From positions 58,097-122,096 of the forward strand of contig CAXXWX010000017.1 in assembly GCA_963675745.2 (NCBI GenBank): 64,000 nucleotides of DNA. Reading direction: 5' to 3'. The stretch is from Phycisphaerae bacterium (GTDB lineage Bacteria; Planctomycetota; Phycisphaerae; UBA1845; Fen-1342). How positions within the stretch are numbered: the stretch's first letter is position 1; the number at the start of each line of letters is the position of its first letter. The translations under genes and the position numbers were made by a program. This document shows positions 24,491 through 45,511 of this stretch, in pieces. The notes beneath the pieces were generated by a model. The model saw only the letters and a list, made by a program, of their open reading frames with translations. It had not been told where the DNA came from and searched no databases.

Positions 24491-25015
24491 CTACCGATTC
24501 TGCCACGGCAACGCCTGTTTGACCAGCGCTGCCGGCGAATCATGCGCCGGATCGGATGTCCGCAGGCAGAACTGATACCCGTACTTCGTCGGCGGCAGGC
24601 GGTACTCCTCGTGCGGCTGCGCGCCACAACTATCGTCGCCGCCGACGCCCATTTGCTTCAAATCCAGGGCAAGCGTGGTGAATTCGCGCGGCGTCAATTC
24701 GTACGAGTGCTTGGGGCCGTCCAGATCCGCGGTTGTGAACGGTAGCGCACTAACGCTCAAGTGCGGCAACCCGGCCGCCAGCAGGCCGACGGGGCCGTCG
24801 CCGCTCAGCGTCAGCCAGCGCACGTCCACCTTGTTGCCCGTCTCACCGGGCTCAGCGTAATGCACGTAGTATTGCTCGCTCACGGGGCCGAAGTATAGCC
24901 CAACGTGGGCATCGCGCCGATCACACTATGTCTCGTGCGGCCCGCGCCCGAACTACTCGAGATGATCCAAATCGCCGACGATTCCAATCTGCATGCCGAA
25001 GCGCGGCAATTCGCC
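24491..25015 (-). pseudogene. C-terminal remnant of a GH2 beta-galactosidase (LacZ small-chain domain)
   Basis: GELPRFGMQ...LE*FGRGPHET*CDRR...YAEPGETGNKVDVRW...KQMGVGGDDS. Two in-frame TAG codons (24953-24955, 24926-24928); the 5' part is replaced by Rhs sequence at about 25015. Confidence 0.85.
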
Positions 25016-26511
25016 TACCCGGACTGCGACTTCATGCACGGCGACATCAACGGCGACGGCTACGTGAACACCTTTGACACCTTGAGCGGCGTCAAAGGCA
25101 GGCCGGCGACATCGACGCATTTGTCAGACTGACGTCGGCGGTGGGCAGCTTCCGGGCGATGCGTTACGTCTATGACGGCGAGAACCGCCTGATCGAAGCC
25201 CGTGACGCCTACCCGGCGCTCGCGAGCCACACCAAGGCCGAGTACGAATACGACTATCTGGGCCGGCGGATCGCGAAGATCGTGTACAATTGGAACACTG
25301 GTACGTCGGCGTGGAACGCCACGGCGACGGTGCATCGCAAGTTCATCTACGACGGCTGGCGGCCGATCATGGAGCTTGACGCACTTGATGATGATGCGGT
25401 GATCCGCAGCTACACTTGGGGACTGGATCTGTCTGGTCTTGTGGGATCGATTTCCAACCGGTCAGGCCTCGACGGCGCCGGCGGCATCGGCAGCCTGCTC
25501 GCCATCAGCGACCCCAATGACCCCAACGACCCGCACGGCGACTTCGTCATCTTCCACGACGCCACCATTGACAGAACTACGTCCTGTCAAAGGCAGGCCG
25601 GCAACGTCGGCCACCTCTTCAACCTGAGCCTCTCCGACCCGAACGACCCGAACACGGCGTCGGACGCCATCGTCGCCCACTACGAATACGACCCCTACGG
25701 CAACGCAGTCACCACGACCGGCGACTACGCCGACGAAAACCCCATCCGCTTCAGCACGAAGTACTGGGATGACGAGACGGGCTTCGGGTATTGGGGCAAG
25801 CGCTACTATGATCCGCGGCTTGGTAGGTGGACGACGCATGATCCGATTGGGATGCGCGGAGGACGAAATCTCTATGCCTACGTTGGAAACTCCCCAATTC
25901 ACAAACGCGATCCGGACGGCAGAGAGATGGCCAAAGAACCACCGCGGTCTTCTGCTTGCGGGGAGTTTTGCAATGAGCATTACCCCGATGAGTCGCTGGC
26001 ACAAGCCTGTCTAGCGGGTTGTGAGAGGGGCTGGGCGGCGCCCACTTGGAAGGACTGCGCGAATCACTGTGAAGCGGAGCATGGTTCGGAAAGGGGTGAA
26101 GCATATAACGCATGCTACCAGGGCTGCATGTCGGGAGCGCCCGACCTATACACTCCCGTGGTGTGCGACCGTATTTACCATATCGTAGGCCATGGAACGA
26201 AGACTGGCAGTGTGGCCTTAGATGACGGCACTACGGTGGACGCGGCGTACATGGCGAAAGTGGTATGTCCCAAGCTGTGCTGGGGTGCCAGAGTTGTATT
26301 TTGGACGTGTTGGACCGGCGACAACACCACGGCGGTCGAAAACCTGTTGCGCGCATGCCCGAAGATCAAGAAAGCCGTGGCATGCACCAAGAACCTCACT
26401 ACATATGATTTCACTCCGTTCTATTGGTGTAGTGGGCAATGGAAGACCATACCCAATCCAGGCTATCGGCCGCCGGAGGACTTCGCCATTGCTGAAGGAG
26501 GTAGTCCATAG
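25013..26511 (+). CDS. Orphan Rhs cassette A: dockerin-like remnant, Rhs core and Cys-rich caspase-fold-like tip (5' truncated; ORF track 25141-26511)
   Basis: YVYDGENRL, YDYLGRRI, FIYDGW, YTWGLDLSG, YEYDPYG, RFSTKYWDDETG, RYYDPRLGRW, DPIG..GGRNLYAYVGNSP..DPDG; tip has HIVGHG...VVFWTC. Confidence 0.85.
25071..25103. mobile_element. 33-34 bp palindromic micro-insertion (copies at 25071-25103, 25565-25598, 27871-27904, 29844-29876, 29993-30025)
   Basis: Consensus CC(T/A/C)TTGAC-N12/13-GTCAA(A/G/T)GG-CAGGC, always between ..A and CGGC. Absent from the paralogous sites at about 27291-27308 and 27408-27425. Confidence 0.8.
25339..25851 (+). repeat. Rhs-core direct repeat (second copy at 27663-28157)
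   Basis: Near-identical DNA from AAGTTCATCTACGACGGCTGGCG to ACGACGCATGATCCGATTGGG in both cassettes. Confidence 0.9.
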
Positions 26512-26515
26512 AGAT

Positions 26516-27055
26516 ATGACATCACTCAAACCGAAGGCATCTTCTGGTAACCGCGCAGTTAACATCAAGGCGTCGGGGGAGGCCCAATGGGGCCGAGGCA
26601 GACTTCTGGTGACCCTGCTTGGAAGCGCAGGAGCTGTCGCGATCGCGTTGGTTGTCTATAATTGCTGGAACGACCGTCGCGATGACCGATGGCTCTATAG
26701 AAGCACCGTTGTGCTCAGAGGTGAGACGTCGGGTGAAGGTCTGACTCTCCATGCGCACAGGCCGGACCGGCAGATGGCACACATAATCGATGTATATCCC
26801 GAAGGATCCCCCGAAAAGGTCGCGGAGCTTCACACGGACACGAAGGAGTGGTCCTGGCTGGGTGCGTCCGAGTTTCATGCTCTGACGGAGGACAGCTTGC
26901 GCCGGTGGTTTTCTACCGGCCCGGCGGCGACGGACGCCAATGCGCTGGCGGAAGCGCTGATGCACATTGTGGCCGGGTTTGACGAAGAACGCGACTTGTG
27001 GAGCGCAAGCGAGGATGTGACGGGCGTAAGTGTGGCGCGTGTCGAGTGGGACTAG
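26516..27055 (+). CDS. Putative immunity protein A (single N-terminal TM)
   Basis: ATG 4 nt after the toxin stop; TM LLVTLLGSAGAVAIALVVY; position typical of a cognate immunity gene. Confidence 0.6.
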   Translation: MTSLKPKASSGNRAVNIKASGEAQWGRGRLLVTLLGSAGAVAIALVVYNCWNDRRDDRWLYRSTVVLRGETSGEGLTLHAHRPDRQMAHIIDVYPEGSPEKVAELHTDTKEWSWLGASEFHALTEDSLRRWFSTGPAATDANALAEALMHIVAGFDEERDLWSASEDVTGVSVARVEWD

Positions 27056-27056
27056 C

Positions 27057-28772
27057 ATGACCAGGCCTACGGCCGGCAGCTTGTTCGCGTATGCGTACGA
27101 CAACATCGGCAACCGGCTGACGCACGAGGACAATCGCGACTGGGAATACACCGCCAATGAGCTGAATCAGTACGATGCCGTCGAGACGGATGATGGCAAC
27201 ACGTTGGTGATCGCCGAGGGGTATCGGTTCGACGAGGATGGGAATCTCGAAGAGGCGTTCGTCACCGGCGACATGAACTGCGACGGGTTGGTGAACAATG
27301 GCGACACCGACGCGTTTGTGCTGGCCTTGATGTACGGCTGTGCGACGTACGCCACGTATTACCCATACTGCGATTGCCTGAACGGCGACTTCAACGGCGA
27401 TGGGCAGGTCAATAACGGCGACCTCGACCCGTTCGTGGCGGCCTCGGGCAACCAGAGCCGCGACTACATCGCCCGGCGGTACGTCTACGACGGCGAGAAT
27501 CGGCTGATCGCGGTTGAACCGACGGCCAATCGCGACGCCGCCACCGTGCGTTATACTTACGGGTATGATTACCTGGGTCGGCGGATCTGGAAGGCGACGG
27601 AGCCGTGGGATCCGAACGCCAGCGGCGGTGCCTGGGATCCGAACAACCCGACCGCGCTGACGAAGTTCATCTACGACGGCTGGCGACCGCTCATGGAGCT
27701 TGACGCACTTGATGATGATGCGGTGATCCGCAGCTACACCTGGGGCCTGGACCTGAGCCAGTCGCTGGATGGTGCTGGCGGCATCGGCGGCCTGCTCGCC
27801 ATCAGCGACCCTGACGACCCGAACGACCCCAACGACCCGCACGGCGATCTTCTGGTCTTCCACGACGCCACCATTGACAGAACTACGTCCTGTCAAAGGC
27901 AGGCCGGCAACGTCGGCCAGCTCTTCGACCTGAGCCTCTCCGACCCCAACGACCCGAACACGGCGTCAACGGCGATCGCCGCCCACTACGAATACGACCC
28001 CTACGGCAACGCCGTCACCACCACCGGCGACTACGCCGACGAAAACCCGATTCGTTTCAGTACGAAGTACTGGGATGATGAGACGGGGTTTGGGTATTGG
28101 GGTCATCGGTACTATGATCCACGCTTGGGGCGCTGGACGACGCATGATCCGATTGGGGAGCAGGGCTGGGCGAACTTGTATGCAGCTTTGCGCAACAACG
28201 CGTTCGCCTGGATTGACCCCGACGGTGCTGAGGAGCATCCGCCGACCAGCCAGCCTTCGAATCCACCGACCACGCAACCGTCGCCACCTATGAAGACCCC
28301 TGTAGAACCGACACCGGAGCCGCCGTGGCGCACGCCAGCGCCGCCCAAATGGCGACACCTAAAACCGCCGACTGTCAAGTACAGGATGTGCGGCTGCCAC
28401 ACCGGAGACAATGGCAACGACCCGGGCTCACCGATCATCGACTCAAAGTGTTGTAAAGTAGTGGACATCTATGGCCATGGCACCGAGGATCAGGGACCAA
28501 CATATGATGATAACAAGAACTACTTCAGCGGCCTGTATTTCGCGGGCATCTGTCACAGGCTATGCCCCGGAGCCACAGTGAATCTCAGGGTCTGCTACGG
28601 CGCGATGAATAAGCCCGAACGCGATGACGAGCTTCGGCGATACGCTCTTCCTTGCCCGAACATCAAGGAAATTTGTGCCAGCACTGGGAAATACTACGAT
28701 GCGCCGTTGTGGCCCGATTGGTACGATGGTGACTGGCGGTGCGTCAGCGTGAATGAACATGTGGCAAGATAG
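27057..28772 (+). CDS. Orphan Rhs cassette B with embedded dockerin-like domain and caspase-fold-like tip
   Basis: YAYDNIGNRL, YTANELNQY, FDEDGNL, [GDMNCDGLVNNGDTDAFVLAL...GDFNGDGQVNNGDLDPFV], YVYDGENRL, Rhs core, DPDG, Pro-rich linker, VDIYGHG...VNLRVC. Confidence 0.87.
   Translation: MTRPTAGSLFAYAYDNIGNRLTHEDNRDWEYTANELNQYDAVETDDGNTLVIAEGYRFDEDGNLEEAFVTGDMNCDGLVNNGDTDAFVLALMYGCATYATYYPYCDCLNGDFNGDGQVNNGDLDPFVAASGNQSRDYIARRYVYDGENRLIAVEPTANRDAATVRYTYGYDYLGRRIWKATEPWDPNASGGAWDPNNPTALTKFIYDGWRPLMELDALDDDAVIRSYTWGLDLSQSLDGAGGIGGLLAISDPDDPNDPNDPHGDLLVFHDATIDRTTSCQRQAGNVGQLFDLSLSDPNDPNTASTAIAAHYEYDPYGNAVTTTGDYADENPIRFSTKYWDDETGFGYWGHRYYDPRLGRWTTHDPIGEQGWANLYAALRNNAFAWIDPDGAEEHPPTSQPSNPPTTQPSPPMKTPVEPTPEPPWRTPAPPKWRHLKPPTVKYRMCGCHTGDNGNDPGSPIIDSKCCKVVDIYGHGTEDQGPTYDDNKNYFSGLYFAGICHRLCPGATVNLRVCYGAMNKPERDDELRRYALPCPNIKEICASTGKYYDAPLWPDWYDGDWRCVSVNEHVAR
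27090..27464 (+). repeat. Rhs/dockerin direct repeat (second copy at 29636-30074, carrying two micro-insertions)
   Basis: Near-identical DNA from TATGCGTACGAC to AACCAGAGCCGCGAC. Confidence 0.9.
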
Positions 28773-29556
28773 TGCTGATCACCATCATCGTACTGGCCCG
28801 TGGCAGCAGCTGGCGCCACTTCACGTGTTGCTATTCTGGTCGCTATTGTGTCTGTCTTGTGCATTCAGTACGTGCGAGTTTGCTGGTGGTCGTGTAGGCC
28901 AGAATGGCGACCCATGGGCAAAAGGATATTCCATGAGAATCGCCACGCAACCAAACATGCAGGGCCGTGCCCACTTTGCCACATCACAGCGTGATCCGGG
29001 CGCCACTGTCATGTACATAGAATACGGCCTCGACACGATGTTAGTCGAGTACGAGATTGATCGCACGGGGGCGGGATGCTATAGGGTGCGTGATACAGCA
29101 TCGCGTGCGCTATTAGAAGGAGAATTCGAGGAGCTCATTCCTAGAGCACAAACTGACATTGCTGCTGTGGTTCCGGACACACGACCGCCACGAGTTCGTA
29201 GTTGCGCTGAGGGACTCGCCAGCATTGTGGCGTTGATCTGGTCAGACTCGATTACTAATGGGTATGCCAGCGATCACGGTGTAACGGCGGTTCTGCTCCG
29301 CGGAGGTAAACGCCAACGGCCAGTGCTGTGGGCGCGTGTGTTCCTGGGTACACTATGGATGGTCGGCTGCTTGGTTGTTTGGAGGTGGCATTTGCGAAGG
29401 TACAGGCGTCGGGCAAATCTCTGCATGAATTGCGGGTACGATCTGCGCGCATCACCCACGCGATGTCCTGAGTGCGGCACTGAAATCGGCACGCTACGGA
29501 TGCCGTTGAGTTCGAACTCTGCGGCTGGCGAATCGCGTCAGCGAACCAGAGAATGA
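28753..29556 (+). CDS. Putative immunity protein B: two TM helices and C-terminal Zn ribbon
   Basis: Overlaps the toxin B stop; TMs LHVLLFWSLLCLSCAF and VFLGTLWMVGCLVVW; CMNCGYDLRASPTRCPECG. Confidence 0.65.
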   Translation: MNMWQDSADHHHRTGPWQQLAPLHVLLFWSLLCLSCAFSTCEFAGGRVGQNGDPWAKGYSMRIATQPNMQGRAHFATSQRDPGATVMYIEYGLDTMLVEYEIDRTGAGCYRVRDTASRALLEGEFEELIPRAQTDIAAVVPDTRPPRVRSCAEGLASIVALIWSDSITNGYASDHGVTAVLLRGGKRQRPVLWARVFLGTLWMVGCLVVWRWHLRRYRRRANLCMNCGYDLRASPTRCPECGTEIGTLRMPLSSNSAAGESRQRTRE

Positions 29557-29584
29557 CGGCCGAGAGGCGTGCTGCACCGGCACC

Positions 29585-30074
29585 GACCCGAACGACGCCG
29601 ATCCGAATGACGCCGTGGCTGGCGAGCAGTTCGATTATGCGTACGACAGCATCGGCAACCGCCTGACGCATGAAGATGACCGCGATTGGGAATACACCGC
29701 CAACGAGTTGAACCAGTACGACGCCGTCGAGACGGATGACGGCAACACGCCGGTGATCGCCGAGGGGTATCGGTTCGACGAGGATGGGAATCTCGAAGAG
29801 GCGTTCGTGAACGGCGACATGAACTGCGACGGGTTGGTGAATACCCTTGACACCTTGAGCGGCGTCAAGGGCAGGCCGGCGACACCGACGCGTTTGTAAT
29901 CGCCCTGATGTACGGCTGTGCGACGTACGCCACGTATTACCCGTACTGCGATTGCCTCAACGGCGACTTCAACCGCGATGTGCAGGTCAACACCTTTGAC
30001 GCCTTGAGCGGTGTCAATGGCAGGCCGGCGATCTCGACCCGTTCGTGGCGGCCTCGGGCAACCAGAGCCGCGAC
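29585..30074 (+). pseudogene. Rhs cassette C remnant, frameshifted by two micro-insertions and truncated before the core
   Basis: DPNDADPNDAVAGEQFDYAYDSIGNRL...GDMNCDGLVN, then insertions at 29844 and 29993; homology to cassette B stops at 30074. Confidence 0.85.
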
Positions 30075-30183
30075 GTCATCTCTGGCGGACGACGGCTTCT
30101 TGAAACGCCGCGATTGTTTGCCGGTGAGGCTGTAGCCAGGCCCGGTCAGGCTGTGATCGGCATGGTCCGTCCGGGCCAGGATT

Positions 30184-30243
30184 AAAAAAAGCAGGGGCCG
30201 ACGATCAGGGGGCATGTTCGCCCCGTGAACATCGGCCCCCTGC
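30184..30243 (-). terminator. Rho-independent terminator of the large secreted protein gene
   Basis: Minus strand GCAGGGGGCCGA...TCGGCCCCTGC followed by TTTTTTT, about 30 nt after the stop at 30273. Confidence 0.75.
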
Positions 30244-30272
30244 ACCTTCGGCTCCCCTCGTGTGATTCCCTA

Positions 30273-33200
30273 TCAGCGGGCCAATAGCTCGACGAACGCG
30301 TCGATATCTCCATTGTTGACAAAGGTATCCTGGTTGATATCGCCCAGGTTGATGTCGCAGCCGGGGTAATTCGCGGCGTAGGCGTCGGGGTCAGAGATTG
30401 CCATCACAAACGCGTCGATGTCGCCGTTGTTGACCCAGCCGTCGCAGTTAAGGTCACCCAACTCGTACTGCTGGTCGATCACCTCCAGGTTGACGCCGGT
30501 CGCCGCGTATGCCACGCGCCAATAGAGTCCCTCCGGCAGTGTTGGCAACTGGGTTTGATCGAACTCCCCCGAGCGGCTGCCGCATTCCACGACGGCGAAG
30601 CCGTCGCCGAGGCCGGGTACAAACCCGTCAACCAGGACGACGGCCAGCTCACCGCCGAGGATGGCACTGCCGGTCACGTCGAGGACACAATATTCGTCGC
30701 CGGCGGTCGTGCCGCCGAGCTCAATCCAGAGCGTGCCGTTGGCCTGTTGCTTGAAATCGCCCTGGACGTTCAGGGTGCCGGTGAGGATGTCGTCGTTGAT
30801 CGAGCCGCCGGGGTAAACCGCTCCGTCGCCGTTCACAACGGTGCCCGTGATGAGCCCCGTGCCTCCGAGGTGGGCGCCGGGGCCGAGGTGCAGCTCGCCC
30901 GCCGGCACGCTGTTGGGATCAACGCCCAGCGCAGCGCGGCCGTCGCCGACGTCGATACTCGCAGCGCCCGCGCGACCGACCATCAGAACCGGCGTTTCGA
31001 ACGTGGAACCCGTGCCGCTCAGCGTCACGTGTCCGCCGGAGCCTTCCTGCAAGCCGAGGAAGCAGGCGGAGTTGGCGTTGAAGTGGCCGCCGTTGGCGAT
31101 GCTCAGCGTGGCACTGCCGGCGTCGCCGAGCTTGCTTGGGTAGGCGCTGGCACTCTCGTATTTCGAGCCGAGGCCGTCCACGGTGATGTTGGCGACAGCG
31201 CCCGCTTGTGAACCGGCAAACAGCTCGCCGTTGGAGTATGCTTCCGACCCGCCGAGAATGCTCAGAGCGCCCTGCCCGCTGTTGCCGACGACTATCGGCG
31301 CGAGGTCCGCGCTCAGCAGGCTGCCGCCATCAACAGTCACTGTTCCATCCGAGCCGGCGATGTCGCCGACAATGATCCAGCCGGTGTAGTCGAGCGTGCT
31401 GACGGTGGCCCCGCCGCCGACTTCGAGCGCGCCGGTCCCCCAATAGCCGATCCGCAGGCCTTCGGTCGTCGTCAGCGTCGAACCGGCCCCATCGACAATC
31501 ACATCGCCGTGACCGGTGGTCGCCACGCCGGCCTCGAGCCAATGTGCCACGCCGGCGGCCTGCCCTTGAATCGTCAGGCTTCCAATACCCTGGTTGCCGA
31601 CCTGCATACCCTCGGTTGTGCTCAAGACGGTACCGGCGCCGCTGGCGGTGAGTTCACCGTCACCGGTGGTGTCCCAGCCGATGATCAACGACTGTGCCGC
31701 CACCGATGCGGTGCCGGCGACGTCGAGCGCAGCCTGGCCGGCCACGCCGACGGCGATTGTGTTGGTCGCCATGAGGGAAGTACTGTCGCCCGTCGCGCTG
31801 CCGTCTCCGGACCCTGTGCTGCCGCGTCCCAGGTAAATCCACGCCGCATTGACGCTGGCGCCCTCGGTGAGGGTGCAGGTACCCTGGCCATCCCAGCCAA
31901 CCGTCAGGCTGTCGCCGATGGTCGCCGTTGAGTCGTCCCCGCTGACGCTGAATTCAGCAACTCCGATCTGGTTACCGCCGACCACGATCTGGTTGGCGTC
32001 GATGGCGCCGCCATCGCTGGCGGTAAGCGCGCCGCTACCCTGATAGCCGACTTCGATCGAGTTAGTCACGTCAAGCCGGGAACCGCCGTTTGCCACCGAC
32101 GTCGTGCCGTCGGCCGTCTCGGCCAGGCCGATGTTCATCCAGTCGGCGGAAGCCGCGCCACCGCCGAGGATGCTGAGCGTGCCCTGGCCGCCGTCGCCGA
32201 CGTTGAGGTAGTTGTCAGTCGCCAGCGACGATCCGGCACCAGTGACGGTAACGTCGGCGGTGGCGGTGTCGAACCAGGCGATCCTGATCGTGTTGAGCAC
32301 ATCAACGTTGCCGCCGTCCGCGACCGTCAGTGTCGCGGTGCCGCTGAGCCCGAGGTTCAGCGTGTTTCCGACGTCCAGCAGGGAGTCGGCGCCGGTGATG
32401 GTCGCCTCGCCGTCGCCAGTCGCGCTGTAACCCAGATCGACGTTCTCGGCCTGCGCCGTCGAGCCGCCGCTGATGGTCATCGTGCCGGTCGCCTGATCGC
32501 CAATGCCCATCGCTGCTCCAATGGCCGAGATGGCGGCGCCGTTGCTGATGGTGGCGGTGCCCGGGCCGTACCGGCCAACGCGGATCAGCTCGTCGACCGT
32601 GAGCACAGAAGGTGCATCGGCCACGTTCAGCGTCCCCACGCCGGTCGTGGATGAACCGATATTCATCTCACGCACGTCCAGTGATCCGCCGTTCAGCACG
32701 TCGGCCCGACCTTGGCCGCCGTCACCGACATAGATGAGGTTGTCCGTTGCCAGTGATGACTCGGCATCGGTGACCGTCAGTTGTCCCGAGCTGCCCTCGA
32801 ACCAGGCGAGGCGGATCGTGTTCAGCACGTTGACCGCACCGCCTGTGGAAACGGTCAGTTCGGCACTGCCGTTCTGTCCGAGGTTCATCGCGTTGCCGAC
32901 GTCCAACATGGAATCAGTGCCGGTGACAGTAAGGTCACCGTCGCCGGTCGTGCCGCAGCCCAGATCGACGACCTCGGTTTGCACCGATGAGCCGCCGCTG
33001 ACGATCATCGTGCCGGTGGCCTGATCGCCGACAACGAGCCCCGCGCCGGAAGCGGAGACGGTTGCCCCGTTGCTGATGGTCGCGGTGCCGGGGCCGCCCT
33101 GGCCGACGCGCATCGTGTTTGCCACCACCAGCTCCGACGACGCATCATCGACGGTGAGTGTGCCCTCGCCCGTGGGGCTTACGCCGACATTCACCTCCTG

Positions 33201-44404: not shown

Positions 44405-45511
44405 TCAAGCGTCACCCGCCGGTTCCGGCCAGCGCGTCGGCTGCAGTTGAAACGACACCTCGTAGGACATGCACCGCACGTGTGGCAGGTCGGCGATCGC
44501 GTATCGCAGCTTCAGGTTTGCCTCGCGGCATACGATGAGACCCTCAACGCGCTCATTCGGCTTGGCCAGCTTCTCCCGCACCCAGGACATGTATCGCAAG
44601 ATCTGCCCGACGGTCGCGTCGCTGGTCTGATTGCGCTTCAACTCCACCACCAACCAGCGAGGTTCGCGTTTGTGGTGGGCCAGCAGGTCTATCTCGCCGA
44701 CGGCCTTGGTCTGGTAATGCGACCCGATGGACTGGCCGTCCTCTTCGAGCAGGTCCCATCCTTTGCCCAGTTCAGTATTGTCCCAGTTCTCCTCCAGGAA
44801 TTCGTGCAGGTGGGCTTCCAGTGCAAACACGCCCGGGCTGCCGGGAGCTGACGGTAGGCTGACCACCGTGTCCTCGTCCGGCGACTCAAAGGACTGGTCG
44901 TCATCCTCGCCCATGACCCGCCACCAGAGTATGTCCAGCGTCCACAGGTCGAGCTTCAGGGCCGATGCCACATCCAGAGCAATCGAGTTCATGGCGACGT
45001 AGGTCTCGCCGACCGTCGCCCCCTTCCGTTCAGGCCACAGCCCCAGTGCCTGCATGCCATCCTGTGACTTCCGGTTCCAGACGGCGTATCGGTCGGGATA
45101 CACGACCATCAGGATGGCGGTCACGATGGCCTTTCCGAGAAATGGCACCTTCCGGGAGCCCTCCAGCACGTCGTCGATTCGTTCTGTAATGGGCCGCGAC
45201 TCATCGACCAGTGCGCCGAGTGCGGCCCGCAACCGACCCAGGTCGGCGACGATGTCCGGCCCACGCCGATGCAGCCCCTCCCAGTGGCGGTTGTTCCTGA
45301 ATCTGAGGAAGCTGAGGAAGTCCTCACTGGTCAGCTTCGGAATGTTGTGCTCGGCGAAAAGCTGGCCGTAGCGCTCAACGACTGCGTGCTTCGCCTCCAG
45401 GATATCGCGCCCCTGGTTATCTAGCCGTTCGACTGGATTGCTCATCACGCGATTCAGTATGGCCCGCAACCGATTCAGCGCATTTGGAGGGACTTCGCTT
45501 TTGTTCATCAC
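44405..45511 (-). CDS. PD-(D/E)XK endonuclease (NucS/DUF91-like C-terminus) with N-terminal helical DNA-recognition-like domain; putative restriction/defence
   Basis: FALEAHLHEFLEENW, GEIDLLAHH, WLVVELKR, TVGQILRYM, VEGLIV; N-terminal GKAIVTAILMVVYPDRYAVWN. Confidence 0.85.
   Translation of the reverse strand: MMNKSEVPPNALNRLRAILNRVMSNPVERLDNQGRDILEAKHAVVERYGQLFAEHNIPKLTSEDFLSFLRFRNNRHWEGLHRRGPDIVADLGRLRAALGALVDESRPITERIDDVLEGSRKVPFLGKAIVTAILMVVYPDRYAVWNRKSQDGMQALGLWPERKGATVGETYVAMNSIALDVASALKLDLWTLDILWWRVMGEDDDQSFESPDEDTVVSLPSAPGSPGVFALEAHLHEFLEENWDNTELGKGWDLLEEDGQSIGSHYQTKAVGEIDLLAHHKREPRWLVVELKRNQTSDATVGQILRYMSWVREKLAKPNERVEGLIVCREANLKLRYAIADLPHVRCMSYEVSFQLQPTRWPEPAGDA

Follow-up and report, generated by a model that had tools for sequence, protein, structure and literature searches.

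How did short palindromes come to lie inside the orphan Rhs cassettes and dockerin-like repeats of a Phycisphaerae bacterium, and what put them there? The question is raised by a stretch of 64,000 nt (the window) from this genome, G000 (other G numbers denote compared genomes and L numbers loci), in which five hairpins, here called micro-elements, interrupt such sequences. Judged from their sequences, the hairpins belong to a family of insertion elements ending in CCCTTGAC...GTCAAGGG, of which they are the smallest members without a gene; those of 28-32 bp are the terminal stem itself, closed by a short loop. Full-length members encode a small GIY-YIG nuclease, and the micro-elements are probably, at roughly 0.7, non-autonomous derivatives mobilised in trans by this nuclease. 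Shared ends, 3-4-bp duplications, a tail junction in small and full-length members, inner-stem pairing that is conserved over sequence, an A-to-C change at the junction and frame-preserving net lengths are directly supported. The idea of a very small non-autonomous hairpin that is moved in trans and either extends genes in frame or frameshifts them, put forward in the original prediction, is supported as well.

Five insertions in Rhs and dockerin-like sequences

The pattern TTGAC-N10-15-GTCAA has 5 matches in the window, where 0.25 are expected, and none of 100 shuffles reached 5; all five elements lie where they had been predicted, and they are real insertions. An assembly artefact is excluded by contigs that cross copies 1 and 2 with zero differences, namely contigs of runs X1 and X2 (one sample) for copy 1 and, for copy 2, a contig of 151 nt from X3 (another sample of the same study). 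The inserted unit is a 28- or 29-bp core followed by CAGG. Insertion of a 33/34-nt unit ending in CAGGC had been proposed, of which the insertion stands and the boundaries do not, since each of the three dockerin sites has gained a net 32 bp and each of the two Rhs sites 33 bp, and the final C of CAGGC occupies the position of an A in the empty alleles.

All five copies are on the forward strand. Copy 1 (25071..25102; 28-bp core at 25071-25098 plus CAGG; net +32 bp) shifts the frame of a dockerin-like repeat that lies upstream of the open reading frame (ORF) beginning at 25141, and base 25103 reads C in place of the A of empty alleles; deletion of 33 nt at 25071, which was thought to rejoin the repeat in frame with this ORF, would not do so, the net insert being 32 nt. 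Copy 2 (25565..25597; 29-bp core plus CAGG; net +33 bp) is in frame within the DANGNV motif of orphan Rhs cassette A (ORF 25141..26511, forward strand; 456 aa with the Rhs-associated core TIGR03696 and a variable C-terminal tip), where 11 codons are gained and Asn is read as Thr. Copy 3 (27871..27903) has the same sequence as copy 2 and occupies the paralogous site of orphan Rhs cassette B (ORF 27030..28772, forward strand; 580 aa with an intact dockerin-like pair, the Rhs core and another C-terminal tip); the two copies are probably a single insertion that was duplicated along with the cassette. Copy 4 (29844..29875; 28-bp core with perfect arms and CAGG tail; net +32 bp) and copy 5 (29993..30024; decayed 28-bp core plus CAGG; net +32 bp) frameshift the first and second dockerin-like repeats, respectively, of a broken third cassette, present as a truncated fragment at 29570..30075 (forward strand). 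Empty paralogous sites are found, as described earlier, in the first (27291..27305, V-N-N-G-D) and second (27408..27422) dockerin-like repeats of cassette B, both on the forward strand.

Five further copies bring the total in G000 to 10: a paralogous Rhs cassette holds two, and the other three lie in a dockerin remnant, a fragment of another gene and, in decayed form, a dead Rhs gene. The claim that an AAC codon is hit every time needs an exception, as one of the five codons hit in the paralogous cassette of the genome (C15:32559) is AAT. The genome carries 171 dockerin-like repeats with a near-invariant N-N-G-D motif, an unusually large and uniform set. Elsewhere in the window, 44405-45511 on the reverse strand encodes a protein with a YhcG/NucS-like nuclease domain.

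Ends shared with longer members and a GIY-YIG gene

The core unit of the family is a 28-29-bp CCCTTGAC-N12/13-GTCAAGGG sequence. The bare core was found in 44 of the 279 genomes of the order, as against 1 for a control pattern, and the core with a CAGG tail in 19; outside the order, 4 of 400 genomes in a phylum sample had the core, the same as for the control. Among GTDB loci, 40 of 43 were labelled Planctomycetota, and a metagenome scan gave at least 126 stretches with the element, although the match at L154 is a chance coding match and lone matches may be false. A check for an already catalogued family, with the Rfam covariance models against window positions 24500-30500, gave no match at E<=1. 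Only the outer 8 bp are fixed, and the stem reaches 11-13 bp. The inner stem covaries: of 139 distinct loops, 111 have a Watson-Crick pair 2, against 40 on average and 56 at most in shuffles, and inner pair 1 shows no Watson-Crick excess.

A long-gap search for matching ends in the 44 core-positive genomes identified a candidate partner. The same ends bound abundant gene-less branched hairpins of 52-86 nt, many with 3- or 4-bp duplications, as well as full-length elements of ~330-337 bp coding solely for a single-domain GIY-YIG protein of 91-93 aa (PF01541, E 2e-11 and 5e-13). Close homologues of this protein occur at 22 places in 19 of the 279 genomes, and at 17 of these places both ends lie within ~90 bp of the gene; three of the other five fall in N gaps, one is at a contig end and one is without the 5' part. 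One more close homologue with both ends was found outside the order, in G373, and none of 29 distant GIY-YIG genes had matching ends. Among 16 clean full-length copies, seven have a 4-bp duplication (two of them at one shared site), three a 3-bp duplication, three an exact CAGG tail, two a similar tail and one neither. One full-length copy shows the CCATTGAC/GTCAATGG end variant of window copies 2, 3 and 5, and micro-elements also occur inside full-length elements. Of the 44 micro-positive genomes, 8 have the nuclease element, compared with 11 of the 235 that are micro-negative (odds ratio 4.5, p 0.004, with kin not independent).

The residues Y18, G20, R28, H32 and E64, of catalytic type, are invariant in 50 database homologues, and the clade of the element nuclease has its own C-terminal motif; an NCBIfam search with the nuclease returned no family. 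The predicted structure (predicted local distance difference test score 84) resembles UPF0213 proteins and Slx1, with UPF0213 structures as best matches in the PDB (1ywl and 1zg2, E 5e-13) and a template modelling (TM) score of about 0.6 for Slx1. The likeness to UPF0213 (YhbQ-like) and Slx1/HIGLE GIY-YIG proteins, of which Slx1 cuts branched DNA, concerns both fold and sequence; these proteins are not known to travel as cargo in a mobile element that makes duplications.

Several members stand out as individual cases. The full-length element at L558:1522-1851 (G028:C9), in an Rhs-like gene, has a 3-bp duplication and a net length of 333 bp, lies ~220 bp from a micro-element and is apparently within another short copy. 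Genomes G122 (L566, L587-L593), G055, G131, G163, G156 and G130 each contain dozens of branched gene-less members of 62-72 nt, mostly with 3-bp duplications (63+3, 69+3, 72+3).

The targets of the family include loops of class-3 repetitive extragenic palindromic (REP) sequences, a further kind of hairpin repeat, tandem repeats, Rhs motifs, dead genes of the IS1380 and IS1634-like types, the element's own loop and a gene that we take, from its motif, to be lepA. An Asn codon as the target per se, as had been suggested, is not supported, given that REP loops, tandem repeats, lepA and dead transposases are also hit. At L134, L194 and L236, a 33-bp in-frame insert adds 11 residues to this conserved, presumably LepA-like protein. 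In metagenome loci L137-L140, L149, L151, L157, L189 and L193, micro-elements are nested two to three deep in the loops of other copies, within class-3 REPs. At L341 (G031:C25) and L327/L328/L330 (G082), a repeat containing the left arm immediately precedes the 3' half of a tRNA-Met-like sequence and could mark the end of an intron or a site of integration. Among 202 contexts examined, 24 of the 26 judged coding by codon bias stay open, and for 91 of 108 members below 100 nt the summed length of element and duplication is divisible by three.

Two types of junction and the base that follows

In duplication mode, the element is flanked by an exact 4-bp target duplication, as in 27 of the 30 copies of G082 and 16 of the 26 copies of G132 (7 more with one mismatch there); these and the other duplication counts were made without requiring a CAGG tail. 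The duplicated 4-bp sequences are varied, both orientations occur and the duplicated target reads R^CNNG(C), while viral chance-type matches had a duplication in 0 of 54. In tail mode, the core is followed by a fixed CAGG and there is zero duplication; genomes G167, G169, G254 and G121 had duplications in none of 25 copies, 18 of which carry the CAGG tail. All five window copies are of this second type, so the absence of a target-site duplication that was noted for them holds in the window and fails for the family. At tail-type sites, the best match to the target motif begins immediately 3' of the tail (mean score 0.05 versus -3.0 in the next register), as scored on filled alleles, in which the A-to-C change favours that score.

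The base after the tail-mode junction is retained if the empty allele has C or T there (23 of 23, 10 of 10 and 6 of 6), and an empty allele in G090 confirms retention at another site. Where the empty allele has A, the filled allele has C: this was seen at 5 of 5 dockerin sites (empties 100 A, 1 G, 0 C), at 4 of 4 Rhs DANGN sites and at 7 of 7 sites in a hairpin repeat, with seven different loops (empties 31 A, 28 T, 2 G, 0 C), in which the pairing partner T reveals that the original base was A. Asn codons are therefore broken because an A after a tail-mode junction reads as C. A few other sites, with no empty allele for comparison, have A after the tail, and some nested copies have A where G is expected. 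Adenine mutagenesis of the kind practised by diversity-generating retroelements was dropped as a cause, the change being always to C and at the junction only.

[quoted passage not shown] The micro-elements are likewise non-coding and share their ends with a putative autonomous element, the 330-bp GIY-YIG element at 17 of 22 sites, as MITEs do according to the parts consulted of PMC10969869 and PMC3184786. They differ in that the partner encodes no known transposase type (DDE, HUH, serine or DEDD) and matches only PF01541, in their size of 28-32 bp against the 70-300 bp given for MITEs in the sections seen of PMC3733652, and in the second junction type with no duplication and an A-to-C change. 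One could nevertheless read them as ordinary MITEs of a DDE transposase with a 4-bp stagger (IS1380/piggyBac-like, with donor flanks as overhangs), the GIY-YIG gene being a passenger. Asymmetric junctions are known from non-canonical piggyBac sites, and the terminal inverted repeats, the 4-bp duplications in both orientations and an IS1380 element of G000 that begins CCC and has 4-bp duplications would all fit. However, matching ends enclosed no transposase gene, whether in G000 or at 45 transposase loci, G132 has 26 copies and no PF13701 or PF01609 match, the conserved sequence is only 8 bp with a covarying inner stem, one intact nuclease gene type fills nearly all full-length copies and the duplication length varies between 3 and 4 bp, which makes this explanation unlikely.

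Other searches for a transposase partner were also negative. Neither the multi-copy insertion sequences (IS) of G000 nor the 45 IS1380/IS4-like loci have matching ends, and a Pfam scan of 111 ORFs beside 43 GTDB copies found no adjoining transposase. Among 68 matches to solo right ends, 30 were examined and none was real; solo left ends with micro-element inner bases, sought in G082, G031, G132 and relatives, gave only decayed copies and tRNA-related repeats, a search that missed full-length elements because their inner bases differ. Derivation from IS110/IS1111 was rejected, since a TTGAC box close to the right end is all that the three IS110 loci of G000 have in common with the micro-elements, and the family has duplications. 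A likeness to CRISPR repeats was dropped as there is no array, and a promoter role because a -10 box at proper spacing is absent from the sequence. The G000 genome itself contains an IS1380-family element with CCC ends, TTAA/TTAG duplications and a piggyBac-like look (C6:238836-240434, C12 and C18), a 1.5-kb IS4-like element with 7-bp duplications that inserts repeatedly at the tip of a small hairpin repeat (C15:286734-288278 and three other copies) and a 650-bp repeat with terminal inverted repeats in four copies (C7:90900-91547, C19:395351, and C27:220997 and 239924).

A strand-biased tyrosine recombinase, SE/Tn554-like or integron-like, that leaves a donor footprint at one end could also be considered for tail mode, because SEs and Tn554, in the portion consulted of PMC10214605, preserve the target spacer at one end while a donor footprint marks the other. 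That footprint is described there as 6 bp from the left donor flank and as changing with each hop, whereas the tail studied here is 4 nt and stays CAGG-like, and no recombinase gene, tyrosine or other, was found inside or beside any of the members examined. This is the least probable of the alternatives weighed here.

A working role of the copies in Rhs toxin cassettes, as switches or as points of recombination, has been proposed, and location speaks for it: Rhs cassettes hold 8 of the 10 G000 copies, and a nearby Rhs motif was recorded for 5 of 6 filled dockerin sites and for 3 of 171 empty ones, although these sites are paralogous and some Rhs loci escaped the motif scan. In other genomes, too, elements with different loops have hit the same Rhs motifs. 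No evidence for such a role was found: excised alleles of the window sites were not seen in contigs, in which the element-skipping joints are short-sided and from paralogues, and family members elsewhere are mostly outside Rhs genes. The Rhs sites match the family target motif and orphan cassettes tolerate damage, and these two factors suffice to account for the Rhs enrichment in G000, so that a switch role is very improbable.

Candidate movers and mechanism

An HUH/Y1 enzyme or a recombinase had been proposed as the mover, which is not supported, as the elements with matching ends encode a GIY-YIG nuclease. A RAYT or TIRYT enzyme (HUH, Y1) acting on REP/REPIN-like hairpins would account for hairpin size, strand bias, a short 5' tail and occasional in-frame copies, which are features of REP/REPIN-RAYT systems in the parts seen of PMC3116915, PMC3733652, PMC6006769 and PMC8266576. 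Of 4 window copies that were folded, 3 form the better fold on the strand bearing the 5' CCTG tail, and the CAGG tail is on the weaker-folding strand in 96 versus 13 clear cases overall, counts of tail strand and tail sequence that come partly from CAGG-requiring searches and from related copies; such a bias with a 5' tail is similar to the REPIN intermediate in the part consulted of PMC3116915. Many copies lie in class-3 REP loops and may be amplified with REPs afterwards, and one degenerate match stands ~300 bp from a Y1 gene in G082. On the other hand, there are no intact copies within ~1.5 kb of 36 Y1 genes, and no RAYT gene is flanked by the element. The hairpin foot lacks GTAG, CGTC and CnGA and contains no conserved guide tetranucleotide, varying with the target in duplication mode and being CCTG in tail mode. 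REPs are targets here, true target duplications are foreign to the HUH pathway as presented in the parts consulted of PMC8266576 and PMC6006769, and a TIRYT with CTTGAC-containing repeats is found in only 3 of 44 positive genomes. A mover of this kind is thus quite improbable. Loci L401 and L412 (G133 and G132) carry TIRYT-type Y1 genes (330 aa); CTTGAC repeats are iterated in their ends, and solo copies are numerous.

The closest precedent for the nuclease is that of the Ssn nucleases with their NTS/SRM hairpins (Chenal et al. 2025, PMC11893778), as far as the main text shows. There, SsnA is a GIY-YIG protein of the same size whose cut in single-stranded DNA lies a few nt upstream of the hairpin, on one strand only, and the authors note an IS-like architecture as a hypothesis. 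A single-domain GIY-YIG protein (~94 aa in Ssn) tied to hairpin repeats is found here as well. By contrast, the SRM motif is present in none of 272 micro cores, 17 full-length ends and 5 window copies, the best structural matches of the element protein are UPF0213, both ends of the element pair into one terminal stem where each Ssn end, as described in that text, is a hairpin, and the target duplications and empty sites seen here have no counterpart in the main text of PMC11893778, which never uses the word "duplication".

With a GIY-YIG nuclease acting in trans, movement would proceed as follows. The nuclease may recognise a folded single strand, or a cruciform, and, by analogy, nick 3-4 nt outside the stem, so that the moving piece keeps a short donor flank. 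The strand bias of the CAGG tail given above speaks for this reading as well. Host repair and ligation would then join the piece at a staggered R^YNNG site. Replacement of the donor flank from the target would give a duplication, and its retention would give the CAGG tail without duplication, as in the window. The A-to-C change could reflect a mismatch against one additional donor base that is fixed towards C, a speculative step that we hold to be rather doubtful. Copies would persist where they are neutral, that is, in frame, in orphan Rhs cassettes, in REP loops and in dead transposases.

Several observations weigh against mobilisation by the GIY-YIG nuclease, beginning with the mixed origin of the strand counts given above. 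The five window copies probably represent only two to four events, and all are slightly decayed. A close homologue of the nuclease was not found in the G000 assembly (91% complete), and 35 other micro-positive genomes, including G082 and G132 with the most copies, had no match. GIY-YIG nucleases are not known to form a covalent intermediate or to carry out strand transfer, which leaves the joining steps unaccounted for.

As to whether the 92-residue GIY-YIG protein is the sole transposase of a distinct IS class of ~330 bp, with a folded single-stranded DNA substrate, joining by host repair, cargo down to 29 bp, a frame-preserving preference and A-to-C rewriting in one of two junction pathways, the sequences leave the odds about even. 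The elements are a new family within a kind that has been proposed in print but not demonstrated, that of bacterial insertion sequences moved by GIY-YIG proteins; a description of the family was not found in the literature searched, which consisted mainly of non-subscription papers in their main texts without supplements.

Other small repeats set this family in context. Elhai et al. (2008) are said to have described SDR repeats in Nostoc, structured mobile repeats of 21-27 nt, some in coding DNA, for which no mover is known; these reportedly differ in sequence and phylum, and a candidate autonomous element is identified here. Rickettsia palindromic elements (RPE) are also palindromic inserts translated in frame within genes, but are ~150 bp and unrelated in sequence, according to the part seen of PMC10969869. 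In the present family an ultra-small in-frame hairpin is tied to a candidate mover; for SDR, RPE and other orphan repeats of this sort there is none. For the hypothesis raised in the Ssn paper that small GIY-YIG nucleases mobilise IS-like DNA, it provides evidence at the level of junctions, in the form of empty and filled sites, duplications and a size series of 29-337 bp, and the two junction types together with the A-to-C rule constrain the chemistry. For genome annotation, these inserts add 11-12 residues to proteins, as in the presumed lepA, or break cassettes without a nearby transposase. Because the protein has 92 aa and the substrate is a 33-mer, the spread of these hairpins is testable with oligonucleotides.

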